A stretch of 11,728 nt of DNA from a virus (taxonomy: Duplodnaviria; Heunggongvirae; Uroviricota; Caudoviricetes): positions 1 through 11,728 of IMG/VR virus record IMGVR_UViG_2565956624_000004; one strand, 5' to 3'. The position numbers and the translations under genes are program-made. Below the pieces are notes generated by a model. The model did no database searches and was not told where the DNA came from. It saw nothing but the letters and a program-made list of their open reading frames with translations. Below, piece by piece: positions 196 to 11,728 of the stretch. Every line of letters starts with the position of its first letter. Within the stretch, counting starts at the first letter, position 1.

Positions 196-656
196 TGAGT
201 TTAAATTCAATCACGCTGGGCGGGAATATCGGTAATGATATGGAGGTTCGCTACACACAAAACGGGAAAGCGATTGGTAGTTTTCCGTTAGCTGTAACGA
301 ATGGCTACGGCGATAATAAGCGGACAATGTGGGTCACTTGCCTGGTATTTGGTGAGCGTGCGGAAAAATTAGCGCCACATATCCGCAAGGGTGGAAAAAT
401 AGTGGTAAGCGGTCGCCTGGATGTTCGGCAATATGACCGGAACGACGGCACGAAGGGAACGGCGGTAGAAGTGGCGGTTAACGAATTTGAATTCATGAAC
501 GTTAACCAACAAGGCCAGCAGCAAGGCCAGCAGCAGAAAGCGCCACCGCCTCAAAATAATAACGGGAATGATGTCCCTCCTGATTTCGATGACGACATCC
601 CATTTGCTCCTATGGGGTTACAATATGGCAAAAGCAGGATCTACGCGCTATCTTGA
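195..656 (+). CDS. ssb: single-stranded DNA-binding protein (SSB, OB-fold) with an atypical C-terminal extension
   Basis: N-terminal OB-fold region closely resembles bacterial/phage SSB (ITLGGNIGNDMEVRYTQNGKAIGSFPLAV...WVTCLVFGERAEKLAPHIRKGGKIVVSGRL). Gln/Gly-rich linker (QQGQQQGQQQ) and acidic motif PPDFDDDIPF are present. The ORF reads 17 codons past DDDIPF before its TGA stop. Confidence 0.9.
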   Translation: MSLNSITLGGNIGNDMEVRYTQNGKAIGSFPLAVTNGYGDNKRTMWVTCLVFGERAEKLAPHIRKGGKIVVSGRLDVRQYDRNDGTKGTAVEVAVNEFEFMNVNQQGQQQGQQQKAPPPQNNNGNDVPPDFDDDIPFAPMGLQYGKSRIYALS

Positions 657-918
657 TGCGCCGCCGATTCCGCGAACAAAAGAGCAAGTTCTAAAAGAAG
701 CCCGTGATCAAATAGATCATGGGCTTTTTTTATGCGGCACGGCAGCGGAACGGATGGCAAAAAGATTTAGTGACCTGTACGCAAAACAAATATGGTTCGA
801 CAACTGGCAGGCAAGTTTTTATCCGCTGCAAAGAAAACCGGATATGCACTGGCCTGAATATGTCGATCCACGTATGCGCAAATATCGCGGGCGTATGGGC
901 CAGGTCATTAATGATTAA
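625..918 (+). CDS. hypothetical protein
   Basis: ORF 568-918 in the track; the first ATG is at 625 (MAKAGSTRYLD...), inside the 3' end of ssb in another frame. No motif recognised. Start is uncertain (568 by the ORF track, 625 by first ATG). Confidence 0.4.
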   Translation: MAKAGSTRYLDAPPIPRTKEQVLKEARDQIDHGLFLCGTAAERMAKRFSDLYAKQIWFDNWQASFYPLQRKPDMHWPEYVDPRMRKYRGRMGQVIND

Positions 919-930
919 TGAGGTGTTATC

Positions 931-1155
931 ATGATTGAAGAAAAAGAAGTAGACAAGGAAATTCCTGACGGTCGTGATGAGCTTATTTGTTTTGACGGCG
1001 GCCTGTATGAGTTCGAAACGTCTGCGGGGTGGCACGATAAATGGCCTAAGCCTACTCGCCAGGAATTAAGCGACCGTAAATCATTCGGCGAAGATGCCGA
1101 ACGGCTGGCTAATAACAAATGGCTTGATAAGTTAATTGCGGAGGGTGGCAAATGA
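931..1155 (+). CDS. hypothetical protein (74 aa)
   Basis: ATG preceded by GAGG-type Shine-Dalgarno; acidic N-terminus; no recognisable domain. Confidence 0.5.
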   Translation: MIEEKEVDKEIPDGRDELICFDGGLYEFETSAGWHDKWPKPTRQELSDRKSFGEDAERLANNKWLDKLIAEGGK

Positions 1156-1265
1156 GCTTTGCAAAAATTGCCGCATTGGCTGCGGCGTTGGCTGTCGCGG
1201 CGCTATATCTTAGCGTATCGCTTTATATTACGGTGGCGATCATCAAGCTGATTACTACTATGTGA
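1152..1265 (+). CDS. small hydrophobic single-pass membrane peptide (37 aa)
   Basis: Not in the ORF track (below size cut-off). Strong SD GGAGGG 6 nt upstream of ATG 1152; ATGA overlap with the preceding stop. Translation MSFAKIAALAAALAVAALYLSVSLYITVAIIKLITTM is almost entirely hydrophobic. Confidence 0.4.
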   Translation: MSFAKIAALAAALAVAALYLSVSLYITVAIIKLITTM

Positions 1266-1273
1266 GGTTAATC

Positions 1274-1393
1274 ATGAAAGTCGGTAAGGATATTGTGACG
1301 GTCGCGTTTTGCATTATTTGCTTCCTGTTTGTGGTTGTTTTTTGTGGCGCACTTGCTGCGGTGGTCAACTTTATTTTCAGTGGGTTGCTGTGA
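1274..1393 (+). CDS. small hydrophobic single-pass membrane peptide (39 aa)
   Basis: Not in the ORF track. SD GTGAGGT 5 nt upstream of ATG 1274. Translation MKVGKDIVTVAFCIICFLFVVVFCGALAAVVNFIFSGLL; its stop overlaps the next ATG (TGATG). Confidence 0.4.
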   Translation: MKVGKDIVTVAFCIICFLFVVVFCGALAAVVNFIFSGLL

Positions 1394-1665
1394 TGAAAAC
1401 GTGGGATGCAAAGGCTGGTGATCTTGTCGTATTGCCTGAATATCGTGATGACCCTGGATTGGTTGTACTGAACAAGATGTGCAACGATCTTGAGCGCCCG
1501 CTATTGGTTAAATATCTGGACGGGGAAATCATAGAGCCACGCTACTTTGATGAGATTGAACTAAAGGCCCGCAATGTTCGCGTTAAGCCGTTCCGGGATT
1601 ATGTTGAAGACCACTGGCGGAAATTGTTCGCCGGACTGAATGGGATGTTTGGCGTATGGCTATAA
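1393..1665 (+). CDS. hypothetical protein (90 aa)
   Basis: In-frame ATG at 1393 within track ORF 1309-1665, coupled to the upstream peptide gene by TGATG; the longer 1309 start would overlap two upstream genes. Confidence 0.5.
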   Translation: MKTWDAKAGDLVVLPEYRDDPGLVVLNKMCNDLERPLLVKYLDGEIIEPRYFDEIELKARNVRVKPFRDYVEDHWRKLFAGLNGMFGVWL

Positions 1666-1847
1666 AATTAGTGAAAGTTAAAGACCTGAAAGGCGGCGAA
1701 AAGATCCGCACGTGGTATGGCTATAAATTTATTGTCGCTGCCTTTTCTTTCGGGCCTGTGGGTCAAGTAACATTATTTGATGAAGAAGATGACGAGGTGG
1801 GTAAATGGCATCTTGAGCAATATGTCGAGGTGTTAAATGAAAATTAA
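1656..1847 (+). CDS. hypothetical protein (63 aa)
   Basis: ORF with a 10-nt overlap with the upstream gene; acidic stretch DEEDDE; no domain recognised. Confidence 0.5.
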   Translation: MAIKLVKVKDLKGGEKIRTWYGYKFIVAAFSFGPVGQVTLFDEEDDEVGKWHLEQYVEVLNEN

Positions 1848-2169
1848 ATTCCATAAAGCATATGATAGCGAAACAAACAAGCTATCACTATTTATTGAAT
1901 TCGAACGCCGGATCGTGGTTGTTCCCTGGGCACGGCGCTTTAATGACGCCGCCGGGCGGCGACAATTCGCGGTCGATATGCTGTTACGCGGTTGCGGCCT
2001 TATGCGCCCGCTATCTGATTTAAAACGGATGATGCCTGGATCGTTCGGTCAGATTGATGAAATAGAAATAAGCCAGGAAGAGCTAAAACGGGCGCGTGAT
2101 TTATTCCTTTCAAGTGAAGGAAACCCGTTCAACCCAGAAACTGAAATGAAATGGCATCATCCACTATAA
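1837..2169 (+). CDS. hypothetical protein (110 aa)
   Basis: ORF overlapping the upstream stop, in the same orientation as its neighbours; no domain recognised. Confidence 0.5.
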   Translation: MKIKFHKAYDSETNKLSLFIEFERRIVVVPWARRFNDAAGRRQFAVDMLLRGCGLMRPLSDLKRMMPGSFGQIDEIEISQEELKRARDLFLSSEGNPFNPETEMKWHHPL

Positions 2170-2181
2170 AGGATAAATATC

Positions 2182-2802
2182 ATGAACGACATCAAAACGG
2201 CTTATTCACTCGGCAGCGAAGGCATGTTAATCACTCGCTACACTGAAGACGCAAGTTTTCATGAAGTAGAAATTAAAGATTATCACGAAGTATTGAAAGA
2301 TATGGAAGCTGGCAAGTATGACGCTGATTTGAATCTGGCGTTACAGATTGTTGATATTGTGATGGATGCAAACATCCGCGATTATGTGTCTTTAAGTGCG
2401 GAAGAAAAAACATCGGTAGCTCGCTATGTCTTCTGTCTTGCTTTCGTAAAACGCATGGAAGAGGAATATGGGCGCGTACCAGTGCCGGAAGATATTGACC
2501 CGCTTGCGTTCGGAAGCGCTGTTATCTTCCCGCTTGATGAAAAACGTATGGGAAGCATTGCGCTGTATTCTATGCGTGGCATGATGAAAAAACTCTTTGA
2601 AGTTAAGGTGATGCAGAAATGTATTGATGAAGGCCACAAAGAGGAAGAAATAAAATTTTTCATGCCATTGCTTTACGTTGAAATGGTCGGCAATGATATG
2701 CGTGCAAATGATCTAGGTGTACAGGCGGCTATTGCGGTGCTTAATGATGCACGGAAAAACTCACAGCCAATGCCTGAACCGGAAAAACGTGTACTGCATT
2801 AA
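2182..2802 (+). CDS. hypothetical protein (206 aa)
   Basis: Long ORF with AAGGA SD upstream; acidic, likely cytoplasmic; no domain recognised. Confidence 0.6.
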   Translation: MNDIKTAYSLGSEGMLITRYTEDASFHEVEIKDYHEVLKDMEAGKYDADLNLALQIVDIVMDANIRDYVSLSAEEKTSVARYVFCLAFVKRMEEEYGRVPVPEDIDPLAFGSAVIFPLDEKRMGSIALYSMRGMMKKLFEVKVMQKCIDEGHKEEEIKFFMPLLYVEMVGNDMRANDLGVQAAIAVLNDARKNSQPMPEPEKRVLH

Positions 2803-2806
2803 CAGC

Positions 2807-2883
2807 GTGATTGCGATCACATAAATATACATTTTGTGTTGTGATCGCGTATCCGTTTTGTAAACCGAAATCAAAAGGTTTAC
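2807..2883. promoter_or_regulatory. putative operator/promoter region: inverted 9-mers GCGATCACA (2813-2821) and TGTGATCGC (2840-2848) flanking an AT-rich spacer, plus hairpin GTAAACC-N10-GGTTTAC (2860-2883)
   Basis: Read directly from the 99-bp intergenic gap between the stop at 2802 and ATG 2902. Both 9-mers contain GATC. No convincing -35/-10 pair could be fixed by eye. Confidence 0.25.
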
Positions 2884-2901
2884 GGCACGGAGGAAAACAA
2901 G

Positions 2902-3120
2902 ATGGCCCGCGAATACATGCTTTATTGCGTTGAGGGTGGCGTAGGCCATGATGCCTACGTCGCCGGGAAAGGCTATCCAGCCGATGAAGTGCTTTCTAAT
3001 ATGCACTTCCGGGAAAATGAAAGCCGGGTGTCTGTGTGGAAACGGTGCATTGATGGTATTGAGGTTGTAAGTATCGAACGGTATTTAGGCACGTTTGATT
3101 ACGGTGTTATTGAGGCTTAA
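2902..3120 (+). CDS. hypothetical protein (72 aa)
   Basis: ORF with GGAGGAAAA SD upstream; first gene after the intergenic gap; no domain recognised. Confidence 0.5.
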   Translation: MAREYMLYCVEGGVGHDAYVAGKGYPADEVLSNMHFRENESRVSVWKRCIDGIEVVSIERYLGTFDYGVIEA

Positions 3121-3218
3121 TTATGGACGACACATTGTTTTATATGTGCTGTTGCTGGGGTTTTATTGCCTTATGCCTGTTTATCAGGTGGTTTATTGAA
3201 TACCATATGAGGTAATGT

Positions 3219-3413
3219 ATGGAACAAGAAACTGATTATCGAATACCTGATAGCCTAAAATTAGTTGGCATTGGTTTCGGGTGTAGATTTGTATCTGACG
3301 CAAAAGGAGCGATTTATTTAATACGTCTTATTGATGGCGTTCAACATATAAGGCGACTAGGAATTTACATCAAAGCATTCAGAAGGGGTTATTTAAAAAC
3401 TCATGAAATTTAA
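3219..3413 (+). CDS. hypothetical protein (64 aa)
   Basis: ORF in the track; AT-rich codon usage differs from its neighbours; no domain recognised. Confidence 0.4.
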   Translation: MEQETDYRIPDSLKLVGIGFGCRFVSDAKGAIYLIRLIDGVQHIRRLGIYIKAFRRGYLKTHEI

Positions 3414-3606
3414 ACATTACATGGAATGGAAAATTCCAGAAGCAGCAACAAAGGCAGCGCCAGGAAATTATTCTGGCGTTTATTTTTATATGGATGGCAA
3501 ATGGTATTTCGGCAGCAGGCCGGATCACTATTATCAGGAAATATGCAAGCCTCACGTATGGGATATTAAAGAGCGCGTGAAAGGCGGGGTAATTGAGGAC
3601 GTTTAA
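3403..3606 (+). CDS. hypothetical protein (67 aa)
   Basis: ORF overlapping the upstream gene by 11 nt; Tyr/Trp-rich; no domain recognised. Confidence 0.45.
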   Translation: MKFKHYMEWKIPEAATKAAPGNYSGVYFYMDGKWYFGSRPDHYYQEICKPHVWDIKERVKGGVIEDV

Positions 3607-3607
3607 A

Positions 3608-3844
3608 ATGCTTAAGAGCTTTTTTAACTGGTTGGGGGCGTGGCTTTTGGCTACGCTTTTTGTTTTCCTGGCGGCCATGACTGTTATCGGTGTTATTATG
3701 CTGGGGGCTATGTTTATTACGTGGTCGCTTCCTGAATTTAACGACATTGGGAATATTCTTTTTGCAGCCCGCGCTTTATTGGCTGTTAGCGCATTCATTG
3801 GTTTTTGCTGGACTGCCGCGCCGGATTGGACTGACACATGGTGA
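3608..3844 (+). CDS. small integral membrane protein (about 2 predicted TM helices)
   Basis: ATG 3608 (track ORF begins at a TTG at 3593), GAGGA SD upstream. Two long hydrophobic segments (WLLATLFVFLAAMTVIGVIMLGAMFI and LFAARALLAVSAFIGFCW). Confidence 0.5.
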   Translation: MLKSFFNWLGAWLLATLFVFLAAMTVIGVIMLGAMFITWSLPEFNDIGNILFAARALLAVSAFIGFCWTAAPDWTDTW

Positions 3845-3848
3845 TCCT

Positions 3849-4082
3849 ATGGCCTTATTCAATATGTCAGAGCCGCAATTTAACGCCGTAAAGACTGCCG
3901 CCCGCGCCGCGCTTTCGGCCTGCAAAGCGGAGGTAGAGAAAAACGGCTACAGCGATAAAGCCACGCGGATGATATTAGATAAGCATTATCGCAAAGTCGC
4001 CCCACTAATCAGCATTGAGCGCTTTGTGTGGTTGGTGGGGTATTTAAACAACCGTTGGGGAACGAAACAGGATTATTTCTAA
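3849..4082 (+). CDS. hypothetical protein (77 aa)
   Basis: In-frame ATG 3849 within track ORF 3690-4082, directly after the upstream stop at 3844; no domain recognised. Confidence 0.45.
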   Translation: MALFNMSEPQFNAVKTAARAALSACKAEVEKNGYSDKATRMILDKHYRKVAPLISIERFVWLVGYLNNRWGTKQDYF

Positions 4083-4091
4083 GGGGGCGTA

Positions 4092-4631
4092 ATGAAAAGT
4101 GATTACGGCGGCAGCCATACGCCGAAAGAAATAAAAGACTTATGGCAAACGCCAAAACCCGTTTTTAGAGGAATGGATCGCGAGTTCGAATTTGTCGCAG
4201 ATGTGGCGGCAAACAGGGAAAACGCGCTCGTTCCTCGGTATATAACTGAAGAAATGGACGCGCTTACTTATCCGTGGGGAGCGGTGGCAATGCCTGGCGA
4301 ATATGTATGGATGAATCCACCATATTCAAACCCAGGTCCATTCGTTGATAAAGCAGCGCTCGAACATCAACGAAATCACATCGGTTGCGTAATGTTATTG
4401 CCCGCTGACGTTTCTGTTAGCTGGTTTATGAACGGCGTTGAGACGGCAAATGAGTGCCGATTAATCACGCGCGGGCGGCTGGCGTTTATCAATGCTGCGA
4501 CTGGTAAGCCAGTAAGCGGAAACAATAAAGGGAGCTTGTTTTTGATCTGGCATCCACGGTGCAGACATGAATGTATTTTCACGCAGATAACACGTAAAGA
4601 GCTATATGCAAGAGGTGCAGATAATGACTAA
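4092..4631 (+). CDS. phage-type DNA N6-adenine methyltransferase (Dam-like, NPPY motif)
   Basis: Translation has N-terminal WQTPKPVF and the catalytic motif IV NPPY (WMNPPYSN). This pattern and the ~180 aa size match the small phage Dam family (T1 Dam-like) as I recall it. Confidence 0.75.
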   Translation: MKSDYGGSHTPKEIKDLWQTPKPVFRGMDREFEFVADVAANRENALVPRYITEEMDALTYPWGAVAMPGEYVWMNPPYSNPGPFVDKAALEHQRNHIGCVMLLPADVSVSWFMNGVETANECRLITRGRLAFINAATGKPVSGNNKGSLFLIWHPRCRHECIFTQITRKELYARGADND

Positions 4632-5109
4632 TGCAGCAGATTTATTACGACTTGCAGCGGAAACAATAGAGCAAAGAGGTAAACAAAACGGTTACGACAG
4701 AAAAGAAGAAAAATCAGCGCCAAAAATAGCCACTATATACAACGCTAAGAAGGGGACAAATTTAACCCCGCTTGATGTATGGGATCTATTAATTTGTCTC
4801 AAGGAGGCGCGTTTAGAGGCCATTTTAGTTAATGAAAGCGATCCTACTGACACTTTGGTTGACTTGATTAGCTACAGCGCACTAAAAGCGGAGCAGATAT
4901 TAAACGATCAGGAGGAAGAACGGAAGAAAAAACAGTTCACTGCCGCCAATATTAATGATGGAATAATAAATGATGCAGCAATAACAAGCTGTAAGGGCTT
5001 GCCTCCTTCAATGCTTAACCCTCAATGTCGTTGTACTACTGATTCGCTTGATTTGAATTTTGACTTCAGTCGGAAGAGGGATAACCAAAATGAAAAAGGT
5101 GACAATTGA
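4624..5109 (+). CDS. hypothetical protein with low-complexity C-terminal half
   Basis: ATG 4624 with SD AGAGGTG 6 nt upstream (track ORF starts at 4606). Overlaps the methyltransferase stop. C-terminal half is N/D/K-rich low complexity. Confidence 0.5.
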   Translation: MTNAADLLRLAAETIEQRGKQNGYDRKEEKSAPKIATIYNAKKGTNLTPLDVWDLLICLKEARLEAILVNESDPTDTLVDLISYSALKAEQILNDQEEERKKKQFTAANINDGIINDAAITSCKGLPPSMLNPQCRCTTDSLDLNFDFSRKRDNQNEKGDN

Positions 5110-6354: not shown

Positions 6355-6376
6355 AGTTTACAAAATGGCGTCATTG

Positions 6377-6437
6377 TGTGATACAGGTCACATAATGGCG
6401 CTTTTCGTCTTGTTTACGTGTATCCATTTTGTATACT
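6377..6437 (+). promoter_or_regulatory. putative sigma70-type promoter (-35 TTGTTT 6410-6415, 16-bp spacer, -10 TATACT 6432-6437) with an upstream CRP-like palindrome TGTGA-N6-TCACA (6377-6392)
   Basis: Hexamers and palindrome read directly from the 160-bp gap between the stop at 6354 and ATG 6514. The palindrome matches both half-sites of the CRP consensus and is centred about 60 bp upstream of the predicted start site. Confidence 0.35.
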
Positions 6438-7710: not shown

Positions 7711-7893
7711 ATGAAAAACGAAATTAAAGATCTGCAAATAGATATTCAGCGCGACGAGCGTGATTTAGCCACAGTCCGACAAATTCAGGCTTTTCACATG
7801 CGAGAATTACTTGCACTGAAAGAGTTTGAAAGAAAGCTAGTGCAATCAATATCTGATCGCAAAAGACTGGTTGCACGTTACGGGGGTAAATAA
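7711..7893 (+). CDS. hypothetical coiled-coil protein (60 aa)
   Basis: ATG 7711 three nt after the rusA stop; charged, helical-looking sequence. Occupies the small-ORF slot often found between rusA and Q in lambdoid prophages. Confidence 0.45.
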   Translation: MKNEIKDLQIDIQRDERDLATVRQIQAFHMRELLALKEFERKLVQSISDRKRLVARYGGK

Positions 7894-8615
7894 TGAATTT
7901 GGAATCTATTCTTAAATTCCACTTCCCAAAATCACCGCGTTTGTCAGATGAAAGCCGGGGCACGTCCCCGGATGCGCTTAATACTACGGATGCGCTAACT
8001 GCCGCTGGTATGGCGCAATCGCGCGTAGAGCTTGGTTATAGCGCTTTTCTGGGAAAGATGGAACTATCACAAGCCGAAAAACATAAGGCCGTAGTTTTGC
8101 TTATAGAGCGTTTAAAGGCTATGGCAAAAGATTATGAATACGTTATGGAACTGGACGAGGCTAAACGCAATGATCTCATTATTCTTGTTGCCGTTTTCGC
8201 GTTTCGGGATTATTGCCAGAGTGCCGCGACGGAAAAAACTTGTATGGAGTGCGGCGGATATAAATTTACGTTTGACGAATACGGAGAAAAACACCTTTGC
8301 AAAAAATGCAAGGGGCATGGGAAGGTTCTCAATCATTGTAAACAATGCAAGGGCCGTGGCGAAGTACCGGATAAAGCAGCCAGCGAAGCGGCGGAAATGC
8401 CAGTGTTCAAAACGTGCCAGCATTGCGGCGGGCGCGGGTACTCGCGTTTCCCCGTAGATCTTGTGCGTCAGGCCGTTAATCAGCTTGTTTTTCCGGTAAG
8501 CCGATCAACCTGGTGGAAAAAATACCGGGTTTTCTATGAAGACGCCATAGCGGAGCTATTCAAAGAAGAGGGCCGCGCGGAAAGTGAAATCAAACGAGTG
8601 ACACGGGGTGAATAA
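7893..8615 (+). CDS. putative Q-like antitermination protein with DnaJ-type zinc finger
   Basis: Four CxxCxGxG repeats (CMECGGYK, CKKCKGHG, CKQCKGRG, CQHCGGRG), i.e. a DnaJ CR-type zinc finger. Position directly downstream of ninG-rusA is where Q sits in lambdoid phages. The Q assignment is inference from position plus zinc-binding architecture. Confidence 0.45.
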   Translation: MNLESILKFHFPKSPRLSDESRGTSPDALNTTDALTAAGMAQSRVELGYSAFLGKMELSQAEKHKAVVLLIERLKAMAKDYEYVMELDEAKRNDLIILVAVFAFRDYCQSAATEKTCMECGGYKFTFDEYGEKHLCKKCKGHGKVLNHCKQCKGRGEVPDKAASEAAEMPVFKTCQHCGGRGYSRFPVDLVRQAVNQLVFPVSRSTWWKKYRVFYEDAIAELFKEEGRAESEIKRVTRGE

Positions 8616-8815
8616 TGGATAAGCTGGAAATAAACGATCAGTTTGCCGTTATCTTATTTGAAGATAAAACAGGCGGCGCATGGTGTAAGAAAGTCACTGG
8701 CGCGGAAGCGCGTTTAATATTGGGTATGGCAAGCGCGTTAAATGAAGGCGAATTGCCAGCCATCCCTATTAAGCCTGTCAAAATTTACAAGCGGGGTGAC
8801 GATGATGAAGCCTAA
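8615..8815 (+). CDS. hypothetical protein (66 aa)
   Basis: ORF whose ATG overlaps the upstream stop (TAATG); acidic C-terminus; no domain recognised. Confidence 0.45.
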   Translation: MDKLEINDQFAVILFEDKTGGAWCKKVTGAEARLILGMASALNEGELPAIPIKPVKIYKRGDDDEA

Positions 8816-9074
8816 ACTAAAAGAACATCTATTTGCAAAGCTGGTTAATGACCTGACATTATCCGCGCGGTTGTGCCGTGATACACAACAATTGAGGGCG
8901 TGGATAGCAAGGGATTTAAAAAAATATATTGAGCCTGGCGGGCCGGGTGGCGAAATCACGATGGACGAAGCCATCAAGCGCCGTTCGGCTGAATGGTCAG
9001 TGAGTAACACCGGATTAACCGGATACATTGAAGGCTATAACGACTGTTTACAGGATCATAGCGATGGCAAGTAA
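8805..9074 (+). CDS. hypothetical protein (about 89 aa)
   Basis: In-frame ATG 8805 (alternative 8802) with SD GGGGTG 6 nt upstream, within track ORF 8742-9074; no domain recognised. Confidence 0.45.
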   Translation: MKPKLKEHLFAKLVNDLTLSARLCRDTQQLRAWIARDLKKYIEPGGPGGEITMDEAIKRRSAEWSVSNTGLTGYIEGYNDCLQDHSDGK

Positions 9075-9375
9075 AGACCTGCATTTGAATCTGAAAGGGG
9101 AATATTTCCACGCCATATGGACTGGAAAGAAGGTGGAGGAATACCGGCTTTATAATGACTATTGGCGTAAACGTCTGGAAGGGCGGGAATATGAACGCCT
9201 GATTATTAAATGGGGATACCCTGCCAACCACGAAAAACACAGGATTATTAACCTTCCTTATTTTGGGTACGAAGTAAAAACTATCACTCATCCATTATTC
9301 GGCCCTGATCCTGTTAAGGTATTCGCAATTAAATGTGACAGAAATTGGATGTTGAGAGGTGAAAATGAAAAGTAA
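9064..9375 (+). CDS. putative ASCH/PUA-like domain protein
   Basis: In-frame ATG 9064 with AGGA 8 nt upstream. N-terminal pattern LNLKGEYFHAIWTGKKVEEYR resembles the ASCH signature (hydrophobic strand, then G-K-K-x-x-E-x-R). Tentative. Confidence 0.4.
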   Translation: MASKDLHLNLKGEYFHAIWTGKKVEEYRLYNDYWRKRLEGREYERLIIKWGYPANHEKHRIINLPYFGYEVKTITHPLFGPDPVKVFAIKCDRNWMLRGENEK

Positions 9376-9580
9376 CCGCAAGCGCCTTGTAAGGGCGTAC
9401 GACAAAGCATTAAAGGCTTTTGATGATCTGCGACACAATAAACGCCAGCGCCGCAAATGGGCGCGTATGCTTGTTTATGAGTGGCATTATTCTGATGCTT
9501 TTATGGAAAGCGCACCGCTATTAACACAAGAACAAGCCGACGAAGTGGCTAACGATAACGTTTATTATATGATGTGGTGA
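9365..9580 (+). CDS. hypothetical protein, paralog A of a tandem pair
   Basis: ATG 9365 (track ORF starts at GTG 9359). MKSNRKRLVRAYDKALKAFDDL... ends ...DNVYYMMW. Clearly homologous to the next gene. Confidence 0.5.
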   Translation: MKSNRKRLVRAYDKALKAFDDLRHNKRQRRKWARMLVYEWHYSDAFMESAPLLTQEQADEVANDNVYYMMW

Positions 9581-9584
9581 CAAT

Positions 9585-9806
9585 ATGAAAAGTAACCGTA
9601 AGCGCATGATAAGAGCATATGATAAAGCGTTAATGGAATTTGACATACTACCACGCAGCAAGCGCCACCGCCGCCAATTTGCGAGATATATTTTTCATAT
9701 ATGGCACGATGCTGATTTCTTTTTTGATGCCAGATATATAACACAGGAAGATGCTGATAATATAGCTTACGATAACGTTTACTACATAATGAGTGAGTGT
9801 AATTAA
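9585..9806 (+). CDS. hypothetical protein, paralog B of a tandem pair
   Basis: MKSNRKRMIRAYDKALMEFDIL...DNVYYIMSECN; N- and C-termini conserved with paralog A, central region diverged. Confidence 0.5.
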   Translation: MKSNRKRMIRAYDKALMEFDILPRSKRHRRQFARYIFHIWHDADFFFDARYITQEDADNIAYDNVYYIMSECN

Positions 9807-9807
9807 T

Positions 9808-10173
9808 ATGCAAATAATCATTGATTACCTTTGCCACGCTGTAAATACTCTTTTTGGTTTTTATCAACAACCATTCCTCAAAGAATGGGACGAAATGCTT
9901 AATGACATCATTGATAAAGGGTTAATAGTTGAGGTTGGCAAGCTAACGATAAAATTTAATTACGAAGGCAAAGAATATGAAATATGGGTAGGTAATAGAT
10001 GGTACTCATACGGGCATATTTATTCAATTGGCGGCAAATACATTAAACGTAGCCAGGAGTTCAGGCCGCGATTCCGCACAATGCGCCGCCTGCGTGACCT
10101 GCATATGAATATATTTGAAAATCAGGAAGCGTGTGAACTATTCAAGATCTACGGGGATAAATCATGGAGCTAA
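9808..10173 (+). CDS. hypothetical protein (121 aa)
   Basis: ATG 9808 two nt after the upstream stop (track ORF starts at GTG 9793); no domain recognised. Confidence 0.5.
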   Translation: MQIIIDYLCHAVNTLFGFYQQPFLKEWDEMLNDIIDKGLIVEVGKLTIKFNYEGKEYEIWVGNRWYSYGHIYSIGGKYIKRSQEFRPRFRTMRRLRDLHMNIFENQEACELFKIYGDKSWS

Positions 10174-10394
10174 AAATCTGGCAGGCTATTGACGTGGTTG
10201 ATAATGAATTGTCTATGTTCGCCACTAACGGGAAACGCGTTGTGATCGCTACATGGACACGTAACCATGATGATATTGCTTTTCGTCGCAAGGCTGCGGA
10301 ATGGCTTTTCTCAGATGGCGGCTACACGATGAACATCGCACAGCTTGCCAGAATGAAAGATGAAAAGCTGGTGGACAGCTACACAACTGCGTAA
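10164..10394 (+). CDS. hypothetical protein (76 aa)
   Basis: ORF overlapping the upstream gene by 10 nt; no domain recognised. Confidence 0.45.
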   Translation: MELKIWQAIDVVDNELSMFATNGKRVVIATWTRNHDDIAFRRKAAEWLFSDGGYTMNIAQLARMKDEKLVDSYTTA

Positions 10395-10404
10395 TGGGGT
10401 GAAT

Positions 10405-10635
10405 ATGCGTATCTATGAACACAAGCGGGATAAAACCCGCTTTTTTGTTCGTGCTGGCGTGGCGTACCAGTATCACGAATGCGGTTACATTGAGGCGCTT
10501 GCTTACGATCTGGATTTTGAGCAAGAAAAGGCATGGTTCGATTTTAAAATTTACCGGAAGCGCAAACCAACACGCGACGAGCGCCACGCTATCCGGGACT
10601 TTTTAATCAGTATTGAGCGCTGGGGGACAGATTAA
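10405..10635 (+). CDS. hypothetical protein (76 aa)
   Basis: In-frame ATG 10405 with GGGGTG upstream, within track ORF 10360-10635; basic protein; no domain recognised. Confidence 0.4.
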   Translation: MRIYEHKRDKTRFFVRAGVAYQYHECGYIEALAYDLDFEQEKAWFDFKIYRKRKPTRDERHAIRDFLISIERWGTD

Positions 10636-10862
10636 TGAAAGTAAAATTCTTGCACGATCACGGTTATCCGTCATTGAAACAGGTTGTTGGTAAGGTGGTT
10701 GACGTCGTTCATAGTGATAATGTCACTTGCATGATTAACGGTGCTGACCTAATTGCCGCTGGCGCTGATGATCATTACATTAATCCTGCATGGTCGTATA
10801 CGTTCAGCCTGGGAGACTTCGTTGGCGACAAGGGGCGCGGGCTGGAAGTGGTCGAGGGTTAA
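10635..10862 (+). CDS. hypothetical protein (75 aa)
   Basis: TAATG overlap with the upstream gene; no domain recognised. Confidence 0.45.
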   Translation: MKVKFLHDHGYPSLKQVVGKVVDVVHSDNVTCMINGADLIAAGADDHYINPAWSYTFSLGDFVGDKGRGLEVVEG

Positions 10863-10866
10863 CATC

Positions 10867-11115
10867 ATGGACGTTTACGAAGATCTATACCTCCATACAG
10901 ACATAAACACTTTTTATTTTCTTAAAAACGGCGTCGTGTATCGCAGTGACGACGGGGTGATAATGAAAGAGTGGTTATTTAAGCGTAAAGACCTACTCGA
11001 CGATCTGGTTTTTGCCGGGATATTTCGTAAACGTCCGGCTAACCTGGAAGAAGAAATGTTGATAGAGGTATATCAAAATGAAAATCAGGGTAAGTTATTT
11101 CCGGGCGAAAGATAA
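10867..11115 (+). CDS. hypothetical protein (82 aa)
   Basis: In-frame ATG 10867 within track ORF 10753-11115, 4 nt after the upstream stop; no domain recognised. Confidence 0.45.
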   Translation: MDVYEDLYLHTDINTFYFLKNGVVYRSDDGVIMKEWLFKRKDLLDDLVFAGIFRKRPANLEEEMLIEVYQNENQGKLFPGER

Positions 11116-11329
11116 GGCAACGGGAAAGCAGATGGCGATCCTGGTTAACGAGGCGCAGTACATGTTTGTCCTTCAGCCGTGGTGTGTTGTAGACCTTAAC
11201 GACAATTGCCGCCGTCACGCTGCGCGGAGCGCTGTAGGCATGAAAGGATGGCAGCCGCGCGACATGGAAAACTATTGTGAATGGAAATTGGTGGCAAAAT
11301 ACACGGTAGACTATAAAGGGGTTTTCTGA
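11078..11329 (+). CDS. hypothetical protein (83 aa; alternative start 11132)
   Basis: ATG 11078 has GAGGT 8 nt upstream but overlaps the preceding gene by 38 nt. An internal ATG at 11132 would avoid the overlap. Two CxxC-like pairs (CVVDLNDNC, and one Cys in ENYCEWK). Confidence 0.4.
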   Translation: MKIRVSYFRAKDKATGKQMAILVNEAQYMFVLQPWCVVDLNDNCRRHAARSAVGMKGWQPRDMENYCEWKLVAKYTVDYKGVF

Positions 11330-11586
11330 TGGAACATTTATATTTTAATGTAATTCAGACTCGCGATCTCGACAAATTCAAAGACGGTAAGGTTTATTGC
11401 GGGGTTCAGATTTACGGTGCGCCTGGTGGTGATGGTGCAATGGCTATAACTGGCGATGATGGTAAGTTATATTTTGCTTATGCAAGCCATATCAATAACG
11501 CCTCTGGCTTGTATATTTATCGCATCGTGCATGATTTCCGTGAGATCGCTGTACTTCATGCTCGCGAAGGTAGTAAACCGGAATAA
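11329..11586 (+). CDS. hypothetical protein (85 aa)
   Basis: ATG overlapping the upstream stop (TGATG); Gly-rich segment GAPGGDGAMAITGDDG; no domain recognised. Confidence 0.45.
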   Translation: MEHLYFNVIQTRDLDKFKDGKVYCGVQIYGAPGGDGAMAITGDDGKLYFAYASHINNASGLYIYRIVHDFREIAVLHAREGSKPE

Positions 11587-11612
11587 ATGTGATCTACCAC
11601 ACAAAGTTTACG

Positions 11613-11640
11613 AAATGGCATTGTTTAGGCAGTGCCATTT
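11613..11640. promoter_or_regulatory. inverted repeat AAATGGCA-N12-TGCCATTT in a 96-bp intergenic gap (operator, weak terminator or RNA hairpin)
   Basis: Read directly; 8-bp perfect arms with a 12-nt loop, followed by TTGTTACATATAAG, which contains -10-like hexamers. Only a short T run follows the stem, so a strong intrinsic terminator is not supported. Confidence 0.2.
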
Positions 11641-11682
11641 TGTTACATATAAGCCACGGAAAGACGAATGGGAGGTAAGAAG

Positions 11683-11728
11683 ATGAACGCTAACGCTAAG
11701 GAAGGTGCGAATAAGCGGGGAAATTCTT
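11683..11728 (+). CDS. hypothetical protein, 5' fragment (continues beyond window)
   Basis: ATG 11683 with strong SD GGGAGGT 6 nt upstream; MNANAKEGANKRGNS... open to the window end. Confidence 0.35.
   Translation, partial: MNANAKEGANKRGNS

Follow-up and report, generated by a model that had tools for sequence, protein, structure and literature searches.

Twelve small genes downstream of a Q antiterminator gene probably belong to the early accessory region of mEpimmI coliphages

The nin region of phage lambda (ninA-ninI, the P-Q interval) spans ~3 kb and holds about ten small genes with overlapping stops and starts, expressed in the delayed-early operon from pR. Its internal terminators need N-type antitermination, its content is mosaic among relatives, and the nin5 deletion shows that the region is largely dispensable. 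Temperate phages commonly carry small early genes in runs; those in the semi-essential early (SEE) region of Mu-like phages and in the early accessory stretch of P2-like phages are mostly uncharacterized and not needed for basic growth. Accessory regions of a further kind, described by Silas et al. (10.1101/2023.04.06.535777), are clusters of small genes between core genes, marked by genes that are present or absent from genome to genome, by duplication, and by single families that spread horizontally. Here we analyze a run of twelve small genes, g1 to g12, at positions 8615-11586 of an 11,728-nucleotide (nt) stretch of viral DNA (IMG/VR record IMGVR_UViG_2565956624_000004), called the window below. 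The run begins directly after a gene for a Q-type antiterminator. We estimate a probability of roughly 0.6 that the twelve open reading frames (ORFs) are the Q-proximal part of an extended series of small accessory genes, located within the early rightward operon of mEpimmI-group temperate coliphages.

We found that the whole window matches phages of this group. By megablast it aligned to mEpimmI (mEp021-like) members at 87-92% identity over 81-94% of its length; those matched were mEp021, mEp010, mEp013, mEp044, mEp515, mEp554, and MagusPhagus. The closest complete E. coli RefSeq genome was UMNK88 (91% identity), and no complete E. coli RefSeq genome carried an identical copy. Scans of GTDB species representatives for exact copies of the right-hand IS5 junction and of the terminator in g8 were also negative. 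Phages of the mEpimmI group are reported to be as common as lambdoid phages among human gut isolates, their structural genes are non-lambdoid, and an N-like antiterminator, Gp17, has been documented together with nut sites (PMC11893012). The biology of the group has been published, and GenBank already lists these ORFs as "hypothetical proteins".

The twelve ORFs are tightly packed, as an earlier note on this DNA had described. All are on the plus strand and encode proteins of 66-121 amino acids (aa). The junction offsets, with overlaps given as negative values, are -1, -14, -11, -17, and +4 nt from Q/g1 to g4/g5 and +1, -10, +10, -1, +4, -38, and -1 nt from g5/g6 to g11/g12. Seven of the eleven internal junctions overlap, the largest gap is 10 nt, and non-coding DNA in the stretch amounts to 19 nt. 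We calculated the ratio of nonsynonymous to synonymous polymorphism (pN/pS) against orthologs from 10 relatives. All twelve genes were under purifying selection, with pN/pS of 0.07-0.45 (Q gene, 0.16), and we therefore conclude that the ORFs are real genes and not chance occurrences. Minus-strand ORFs of 96-112 aa across the array were taken as spurious because they overlap these plus-strand genes. The predicted isoelectric points (pI) of the twelve proteins range from 4.7 to 9.6, and no hydrophobic segment in any of them is long enough to span a membrane.

The gene preceding g1 (7893-8615, plus strand) encodes a 240-aa protein that matched PF03589 (1.6e-28; 99.1 bits, cut-off 26.7) and phrog_127 (4.8e-78) and aligned to lambda Q over its full length (34% identity, E 2e-46). 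Judged by these matches it is a genuine antiterminator of the lambda-Q family. Its stop codon overlaps the start codon of g1 (TAATG), and the array does indeed follow a Q gene without interruption. Relative to lambda Q, the protein has a 31-aa zinc-knuckle insert, which provides a further pair of CxxC knuckles. There are four CxxCxGxG-type knuckles in all, and one pair in lambda Q; the match to DnaJ_CXXCXGXG was below threshold (E 6.5e-06; 26.8 bits, cut-off 32.7). In some relatives, a gene for another small zinc-knuckle protein (family F18, ~115 aa) separates g1 from g2.

In relatives, the array runs on to the holin gene over 2.0-7.3 kb and 8-29 ORFs. The interval between Q and holin is shortest in mEp021 (8 ORFs, 2.0 kb) and reaches 29 ORFs and 7.2 kb in Ecol_244 and KKa019. 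Directly before the holin gene we found a 43-nt block (GATTAAAATATTTCCTAACAATGCGAAATTGTAATTACCCGGC); a GC-rich hairpin and a T-run come next. Allowing four free positions, exact matches to the block were found in 27 loci, including loci L001 (5938-5992) and L004 (10462-10520), and the GC-rich terminator lies within ~25 nt of it. The block contains TAAAAT, 7 nt, and AACAAT; the corresponding parts of lambda pR' are TAAATT, 6 nt, and AACGAT. In lambda pR' the second -10-like element induces the sigma-dependent pause at which Q loads. Based on this resemblance we suggest that the block is likely the Q-dependent late promoter of the mEpimmI phages, located 2-7 kb from Q. A pR'-like block and terminator before holin would place the array upstream of the late promoter, in the delayed-early rightward operon, and it is from this placement that we infer the timing of its expression. 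The array is also co-oriented with the genes for NinG, RusA, and Q and coupled to Q. Promoter-like sites from Q to g12 were not in excess (9 found, 9.1 expected), and there is no intergenic room for a promoter.

Two terminator-like elements lie along the array. The first is an intrinsic terminator inside the coding sequence of g8 (10423-10451, plus strand; AAGCGGGATAAAACCCGCTT TTTTGTTCG). It lies 18 nt past the start codon and consists of a hairpin, AAGCGGG-ATAAAA-CCCGCTT, and a U-run, TTTTGTT; its predicted RNA fold has an energy of -23.3 kcal/mol (z -4.45). The hairpin is kept in 10/10 relatives even though adjacent codons vary synonymously, and in mEp010 two synonymous substitutions produce a compensatory change from G:C to C:G. 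Its exact 32-mer was present in 39 IMG/VR contigs (~54 kb), and the depositors of mEp554 annotated it as terminator T9.

The second is a non-coding punctuation element after g12 (11587-11683, plus strand), with a TGTGA-N6-ACACA palindrome, a 15-bp hairpin, and a U-rich tail (-20.6 kcal/mol, z -4.9). It is kept in nearly all relatives, including those without g12, and the depositors of mEp554, mEp044, and mEp010 marked a terminator at the equivalent place. A related element follows the methyltransferase gene at 6356-6410. Both share AGTTTAC(A/G)AAATGGC, a TGTGA-N6-(T/A)CACA palindrome, a hairpin, and a T-run, and they occupy the only sizeable gaps in the operon. In ~13 relatives the palindrome after g12 equals the CRP consensus half-sites. 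We set aside a CRP site at this TGTGA-N6-TCACA palindrome because a similar palindrome lies within the terminator hairpin after the methyltransferase gene; it may more simply be an RNA stem. Internal terminators such as those in g8 and after g12 fit an operon that is read by an antiterminated polymerase.

The ends of the window are insertion sequences. IS5 termini occupy its first 35 bases (1-35) and its last 34 bases (11695-11728), with flanking tetranucleotides TTAG and CTAA. Because the two ends are opposite IS5 termini, there are two IS5 copies in direct orientation, and the window is a prophage fragment between them. The phage DNA, 11.66 kb long, starts in a truncated gene upstream of ssb and ends in a truncated thirteenth array gene (MNANAK...), whose start (MNA...; 11684-11694, plus strand) is cut by the IS5 insertion; intact orthologs of this gene (MNANAKYPAWVF...) are present in relatives. 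The fragment has no immunity region, late promoter, lysis genes, structural genes, or native upstream promoter region.

All twelve ORFs are intact in this IS5-bounded remnant. Their retention between IS5 copies would be explained if they were lysogenic-conversion (moron) genes, expressed from the prophage to the benefit of the host, for example in superinfection exclusion. The conserved element after g12 would also suit such genes, as it comes with a possible weak promoter in relatives. However, we consider moron genes very unlikely here. Gaps of at most 10 nt leave no room for promoters, and promoter-like sites are no more frequent than expected. The genes are co-oriented with and translationally coupled to Q, and some have homologs in strictly virulent phages. 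PADLOC found a defense match for none of the 10 genes scanned (g1-g4, g6-g9, g11, and g12), and the hydrophobic, membrane-like segment usual in exclusion proteins is absent.

Based on these results we favor the placement in an early accessory block and propose how such a block would work. The gene order in an intact phage would be Dam, cytosine methyltransferase, NinG, RusA, Q, 8-29 small genes, late promoter and terminator, holin, lysozyme, and the remaining lysis cassette. The array would be transcribed as part of the polycistronic delayed-early mRNA from pR. RNA polymerase modified by Gp17 would read through the terminator in g8 and the hairpin element after g12, and each overlap of a stop with a start codon would couple the translation of neighboring genes. 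During lytic growth the proteins would most likely bind macromolecules of the host or the phage, g3 as an ASCH-type binder of RNA or modified nucleosides and g4 and g5 through helices that are basic and rich in arginine. Such an array would be of the same kind as a lambda nin region, or a Mu semi-essential early region, but extended past Q. Within it, g7-g11 would be a near-core block found throughout the lineage, and g1-g6 and g12 would be dispensable genes that are gained, lost, duplicated, or exchanged at gene boundaries.

Several points weigh against this explanation. A weak promoter-like site (CTGGCA-16-GATAAT) is present where g7 begins, and the terminator in g8 follows ~220 nt downstream. 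In mEp021 this pair comes directly after Q, much like pR' and tR' in lambda; g8 and the genes downstream of it could instead be late genes. The late promoter before holin is a putative one, assigned by motif resemblance and conservation. The native upstream promoter region has been lost to IS5, and the copy in the window may not be expressed as proposed. The g10 ortholog was reported in CsCl-purified virions, which would be unusual for a purely early, non-structural gene. The probable assignment of g3 to the ASCH superfamily is based on a motif and on source names, with a score below the Pfam threshold. Finally, the literature searched contained no functional demonstration for any of the twelve genes.

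We found that the array has a constant part and a sporadic part. Presence was counted in 10 annotated relatives and in the IMG/VR loci that span each position. Genes g7-g11 were in 10/10 annotated relatives; g8-g11 were in 19/19 IMG/VR loci, and g7 was in every locus that reaches its position. Upstream of these, g1 was present in 8/10 annotated relatives and 25/25 IMG/VR loci, g2 in 8/10 and 23/25, g4-type genes in 9/10 and 25/25, and g6 in 9/10 and 25/25. Two genes were more sporadic: g3 was found in 7/10 and 19/25 (26/35 total) and g12 in 4/10 and 9/24 (13/34 total). The second copy of the g4 type, g5, was in two of the 10 annotated relatives (UMNK88 and Ecol_244) and in 1/25 spanning IMG/VR loci (3 IMG/VR loci overall). 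Gene content is thus only moderately variable, with g7-g11 universal, g1, g2, g4, and g6 at about 90% or more, and g3, g12, and g5 sporadic. Genes g1, g2, and g4 each occur as two or three allelic types.

mEp021 is an outlier in which g7 comes directly after Q; g1-g6 are absent, as is g12. This phage is viable and was propagated on E. coli W3110 (PMC11893012), and therefore g1-g6 and g12 are dispensable on a permissive host. Across 11 genomes (the window and ten relatives), the array from Q to holin comprises 29 protein families. Profile comparisons related families F14, F20, and F24 to one another and likewise F16, F19, and g12, indicating that the array grew partly by duplication. The heptamer GGGGTGA occurs at window positions 8605, 8793, 10396, and 10954 (4 observed, 0.9 expected). 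In three of the four cases it is at a gene junction, where it serves as a Shine-Dalgarno sequence: within the end of the upstream gene at Q/g1 and g1/g2, and in the 10-nt gap at g7/g8. These repeats may aid recombination at gene boundaries.

Searches of family databases gave few leads on function. PHROG families were matched by 10 of the twelve genes (not by g10 or g12), and every one of these families is of unknown function. Pfam, NCBIfam, and PADLOC gave no significant match for the array genes scanned; the NCBIfam and PADLOC scans covered 10 of the twelve genes each, those for PADLOC being g1-g4, g6-g9, g11, and g12. Sequence and profile searches of the PDB with g1, g2, g3, g4, g6, g8, g9, g10, and g12 yielded no meaningful match apart from a borderline match of g8 to UHRF1 and matches of g3 at E ~1. 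Not one array gene matched a family annotated as anti-defense, defense, lysis, or structural in PHROG, Pfam, NCBIfam, or PADLOC. Of the 17 further families in the wider array, only one, a DnaJ-like zinc-knuckle protein, had any annotation, and none was a recognized anti-defense gene. The statement that no family could be named, beyond a tentative ASCH/PUA-like fold, therefore holds. Profile searches assigned no part of the array to structural or lysis functions, and readings of the array as lysis, structural, or moron genes are not supported.

The earlier note had likened the array to an anti-defense or host-takeover island. As an anti-defense island, the array would be a counter-defense hotspot in which some or most of the twelve proteins inhibit restriction-modification, CBASS, retrons, Gabija, or other systems. 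The position in the early operon, the small soluble proteins, and the tight packing are all consistent with this, as are the dispensability of g1-g6 in mEp021 and the presence/absence polymorphism, allelic replacement, and duplication seen in the array. In addition, g1, g9, and g10 are acidic, relatives of g6 adjoin DNA methyltransferases in P2-like prophages, and accessory regions of similar appearance are enriched in counter-defense genes (Silas et al., 10.1101/2023.04.06.535777).

However, no match was to a family that PHROG, Pfam, or NCBIfam labels as anti-restriction, anti-CRISPR, or similar, and the nine genes searched against the PDB had no sequence match to a solved anti-defense protein. 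The wider array also contains no known anti-defense gene that would implicate its neighbors by association. The array had been expected to vary as a hotspot between related phages, but its content appears far less variable than that of typical accessory hotspots: g7-g11 are in every relative examined, and there are 29 families in 11 genomes. The pN/pS values of 0.07-0.45 show no gross sign of diversifying selection. An anti-defense island is therefore doubtful in our view, and the chance that at least one array gene is a counter-defense factor seems to us equally low or at best slightly higher. The other half of the comparison, to a region of host-takeover or accessory early genes, fits the position in the operon, the viability of mEp021 without g1-g6, the relatives of single genes in other phages, and the small size of all twelve products, none with a transmembrane-like stretch.

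The constancy of g7-g11 raises another possibility, that these five genes supply core functions that all members of the group need, such as control of late expression, DNA maturation, or, for g10, a role in the virion. Besides being present in all 10 annotated relatives and in 19/19 spanning IMG/VR loci, they are kept in the minimal array of mEp021 directly after Q, they have low pN/pS (0.07-0.18), and they enclose the conserved terminator in g8. The g10 ortholog, in addition to its detection in purified virions, is conserved in 48/48 genomes of the published study, where a RegA-like protein was suggested. On the other hand, g10 is shortened at its C terminus and g11 is split in several prophages. 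The same experiment also detected the single-strand DNA binding protein (SSB) in virions, suggesting carry-over of abundant DNA-binding proteins. Homologs of g9 also lie among runs of small accessory genes in rV5-like phages, which are unrelated and virulent. We regard a core role for g7-g11 as possible but rather unlikely, and return to the accessory block as the preferred reading.

That reading draws on where single families recur. Members of individual array families are found in early accessory regions across several phage types (Mu-like, P2-like, rV5-like, and Sasha-like), a spread that supports assigning the array to the class of accessory early functions. One such family is that of g6 (9808-10173, plus strand; 121 aa), whose motifs DYLCHxxNT, NRWYSYG, and RPRFRTMRRL are invariant. 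In Mu-like phages a g6 relative lies between GemA and Mor, and in P2-like phages one lies before the GPA replication gene and beside a Dam methyltransferase. The structural model of g6 (predicted local distance difference test score, pLDDT, 81) had no fold match in the PDB. On a P2-like prophage contig (L055, 4001-4614) a Dam-type methyltransferase gene is followed by a g6-family gene and this, immediately, by a DUF3850 (ASCH-clan) gene, recalling how g3, g6, and methyltransferase genes occur together in the window.

The second lead concerns g3 (9064-9375, plus strand; 103 aa), probably an ASCH/PUA-like superfamily protein. It has a GxKxxExR motif near its N terminus (G21-K23-E26-R28), and in an alignment of 36 homologs K23, E26, and R28 were invariant. 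The family is broad, with >218 clusters whose source names include "ASCH domain-containing", "RNA-binding protein", and "DUF3850". Against Pfam ASCH (PF04266), residues 8-32 of g3 aligned at 13.9 bits (E 0.091), below the gathering threshold of 21.2 bits; of the 36 homologs, 5 matched Pfam ASCH at E<0.01 and 2 matched DUF3850. There was no NCBIfam match for g3. The g3 profile found the ASCH-like proteins PH0355 (2z0t) and PF0469 (1xne) among PDB sequences with E of only ~1, and hhalign of the family with an approximate E. coli YqfB sequence aligned the motif alone and was uninformative. As a probable member of the superfamily, g3 would bind nucleic acid or modified nucleosides.

The next two genes are a tandem duplicate, as had been noticed at the outset. 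g4 (9365-9580, 71 aa, or 9359-9580, 73 aa with a GTG start; plus strand) and its diverged second copy g5 (9585-9806, plus strand; 73 aa) are 57% identical (2e-26), with a DNA period of 217 nt. g4 is basic, has an arginine-rich N-terminal helix, and matches the C-terminal half of phrog_8758. Its homologs in Sasha-like siphoviruses are also within runs of small genes. An exhaustive HMMER search of 1.84 billion clusters found 9 representatives of the family and no informative domain architecture.

g1 (8615-8815, plus strand) encodes an acidic protein of 66 aa (pI 4.8; phrog_35000, unknown function; pN/pS 0.13). g2 (8802-9074, plus strand; 90 aa, phrog_29262, pN/pS 0.29) has two allelic types, of ~65-72% and 85-100% identity, and its N-terminal motif is also found in Proteus PM135-like phages. 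An hhalign match between g2 and the F18 family was rejected as an artefact of an ORF extended into shared upstream DNA.

g7 (10164-10394, plus strand; 76 aa, phrog_38280) is present in all relatives and has a paralog in the window, a 110-aa ORF at 1837-2169 between ssb and dam (34% identity, E 4e-11). g8 (10405-10635, plus strand; 76 aa, phrog_30442), also in all relatives, has the lowest pN/pS of the array (0.07). A borderline match (E 0.006, 20 bits) connected residues 12-62 of g8 with the tandem Tudor domain of the human protein UHRF1 but was not supported by Pfam; this weak lead may hint at a Tudor- or SH3-like barrel, or may be due to chance. g9 (10635-10862, plus strand; 75 aa, acidic, phrog_5009) is again in all relatives, and homologs ~41% identical to it were found in 119 records of rV5-like virulent myoviruses, where the run of small genes that contains them is near a methyltransferase gene.

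The acidic 82-aa product of g10 (10867-11115, plus strand) is the ortholog of mEp021 gp41, which is annotated as "virion structural protein". The g10 family was found in E. coli-derived sequences of the mEpimmI group only, all at least 66% identical. The model of g10 was poor (pLDDT 62), and this poor model gave no match to RegA. g11 (11078-11329, plus strand; 83 aa, basic, phrog_38609, pN/pS 0.16) overlaps g10 by 38 nt. The sporadic g12 (11329-11586, plus strand; 85 aa), with neither a PHROG nor a Pfam match, is a remote paralog of the wider-array families F16 and F19 (hhalign probability 81-95%).

The genes upstream of the array encode SSB, a Dam methyltransferase (PF05869), a DUF6378 protein, a membrane protein, a cytosine-methyltransferase-like protein, NinG (PF05766), and RusA (PF05866), followed by Q. 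A second dense array of small genes without known function occupies window positions ~656-4090, between ssb and dam, and overlaps a 1,450-bp mEp021 GenBank fragment (JQ072023, aligned to window 3206-4650). Rfam and tRNA scans of the window gave no match.

It is conceivable, though we put it forward only tentatively, that the array holds something of a new kind. At least one of its proteins could be a new type of host-takeover or counter-defense effector. The best candidate would be g6, because it has a confident model without a PDB fold match, an invariant RPRFRTMRRL motif, and a recurrence in three unrelated temperate phage types (mEpimmI, P2-like, and Mu-like). Alternatively, universal g7-g11 with their embedded terminator, placed after Q and before the late promoter, could constitute a regulatory module of a kind not yet described.

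These results bear on an interval of 2-7 kb between Q and lysis genes in common phages to which no function has been assigned. The analysis places the array in the early operon and separates the universal g7-g11 from the dispensable g1-g6 and g12. The features that stand out are a terminator inside a coding sequence, a likely late promoter kilobases away from Q, and the g6 family, with no solved-structure fold match and members in three phage types. The most tractable candidates are g6 and g3, and the natural deletion variant mEp021 offers a cheap comparison with mEp554 or MagusPhagus. The results also caution against labeling any run of small phage genes as anti-defense by default.

Compared with described systems, the array resembles the lambda nin region in its length, the number and overlap of its small genes, its internal terminators, its mosaic content, and its partial dispensability. 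NinG and RusA, the latter a functional analog of the lambda NinH/Rap-type junction enzymes, are encoded immediately upstream of Q here. In contrast to lambda, the array is downstream of Q and not upstream of it, none of the twelve proteins matches a Nin family, and the late promoter would be directly before holin, 2-7 kb from Q. The early regions of Mu-like and P2-like phages share with the array genes of the g6 family, in a P2-like prophage once beside a DUF3850/ASCH-clan gene. The phage types and their regulatory circuits differ, however, and only the g6 family and the ASCH-clan theme are common to them, not the other eleven families. Like the accessory regions of Silas et al. (10.1101/2023.04.06.535777), the array is set between two core genes, Q and holin; it differs from them in its modest variability, its universal sub-block of five genes, and the lack of an anchoring counter-defense gene. 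Among single proteins, the described relatives are the ASCH proteins (PF04266), including N4-acylcytidine amidohydrolases of the E. coli YqfB type; the function of characterized members has been described (PMC9599836, PMC7641849). g3 differs from them in its Pfam score below the gathering threshold and its distance from solved ASCH-like structures, and resembles them in its GxKxxExR motif and in its length of ~100 aa, like that of a single-domain ASCH protein.

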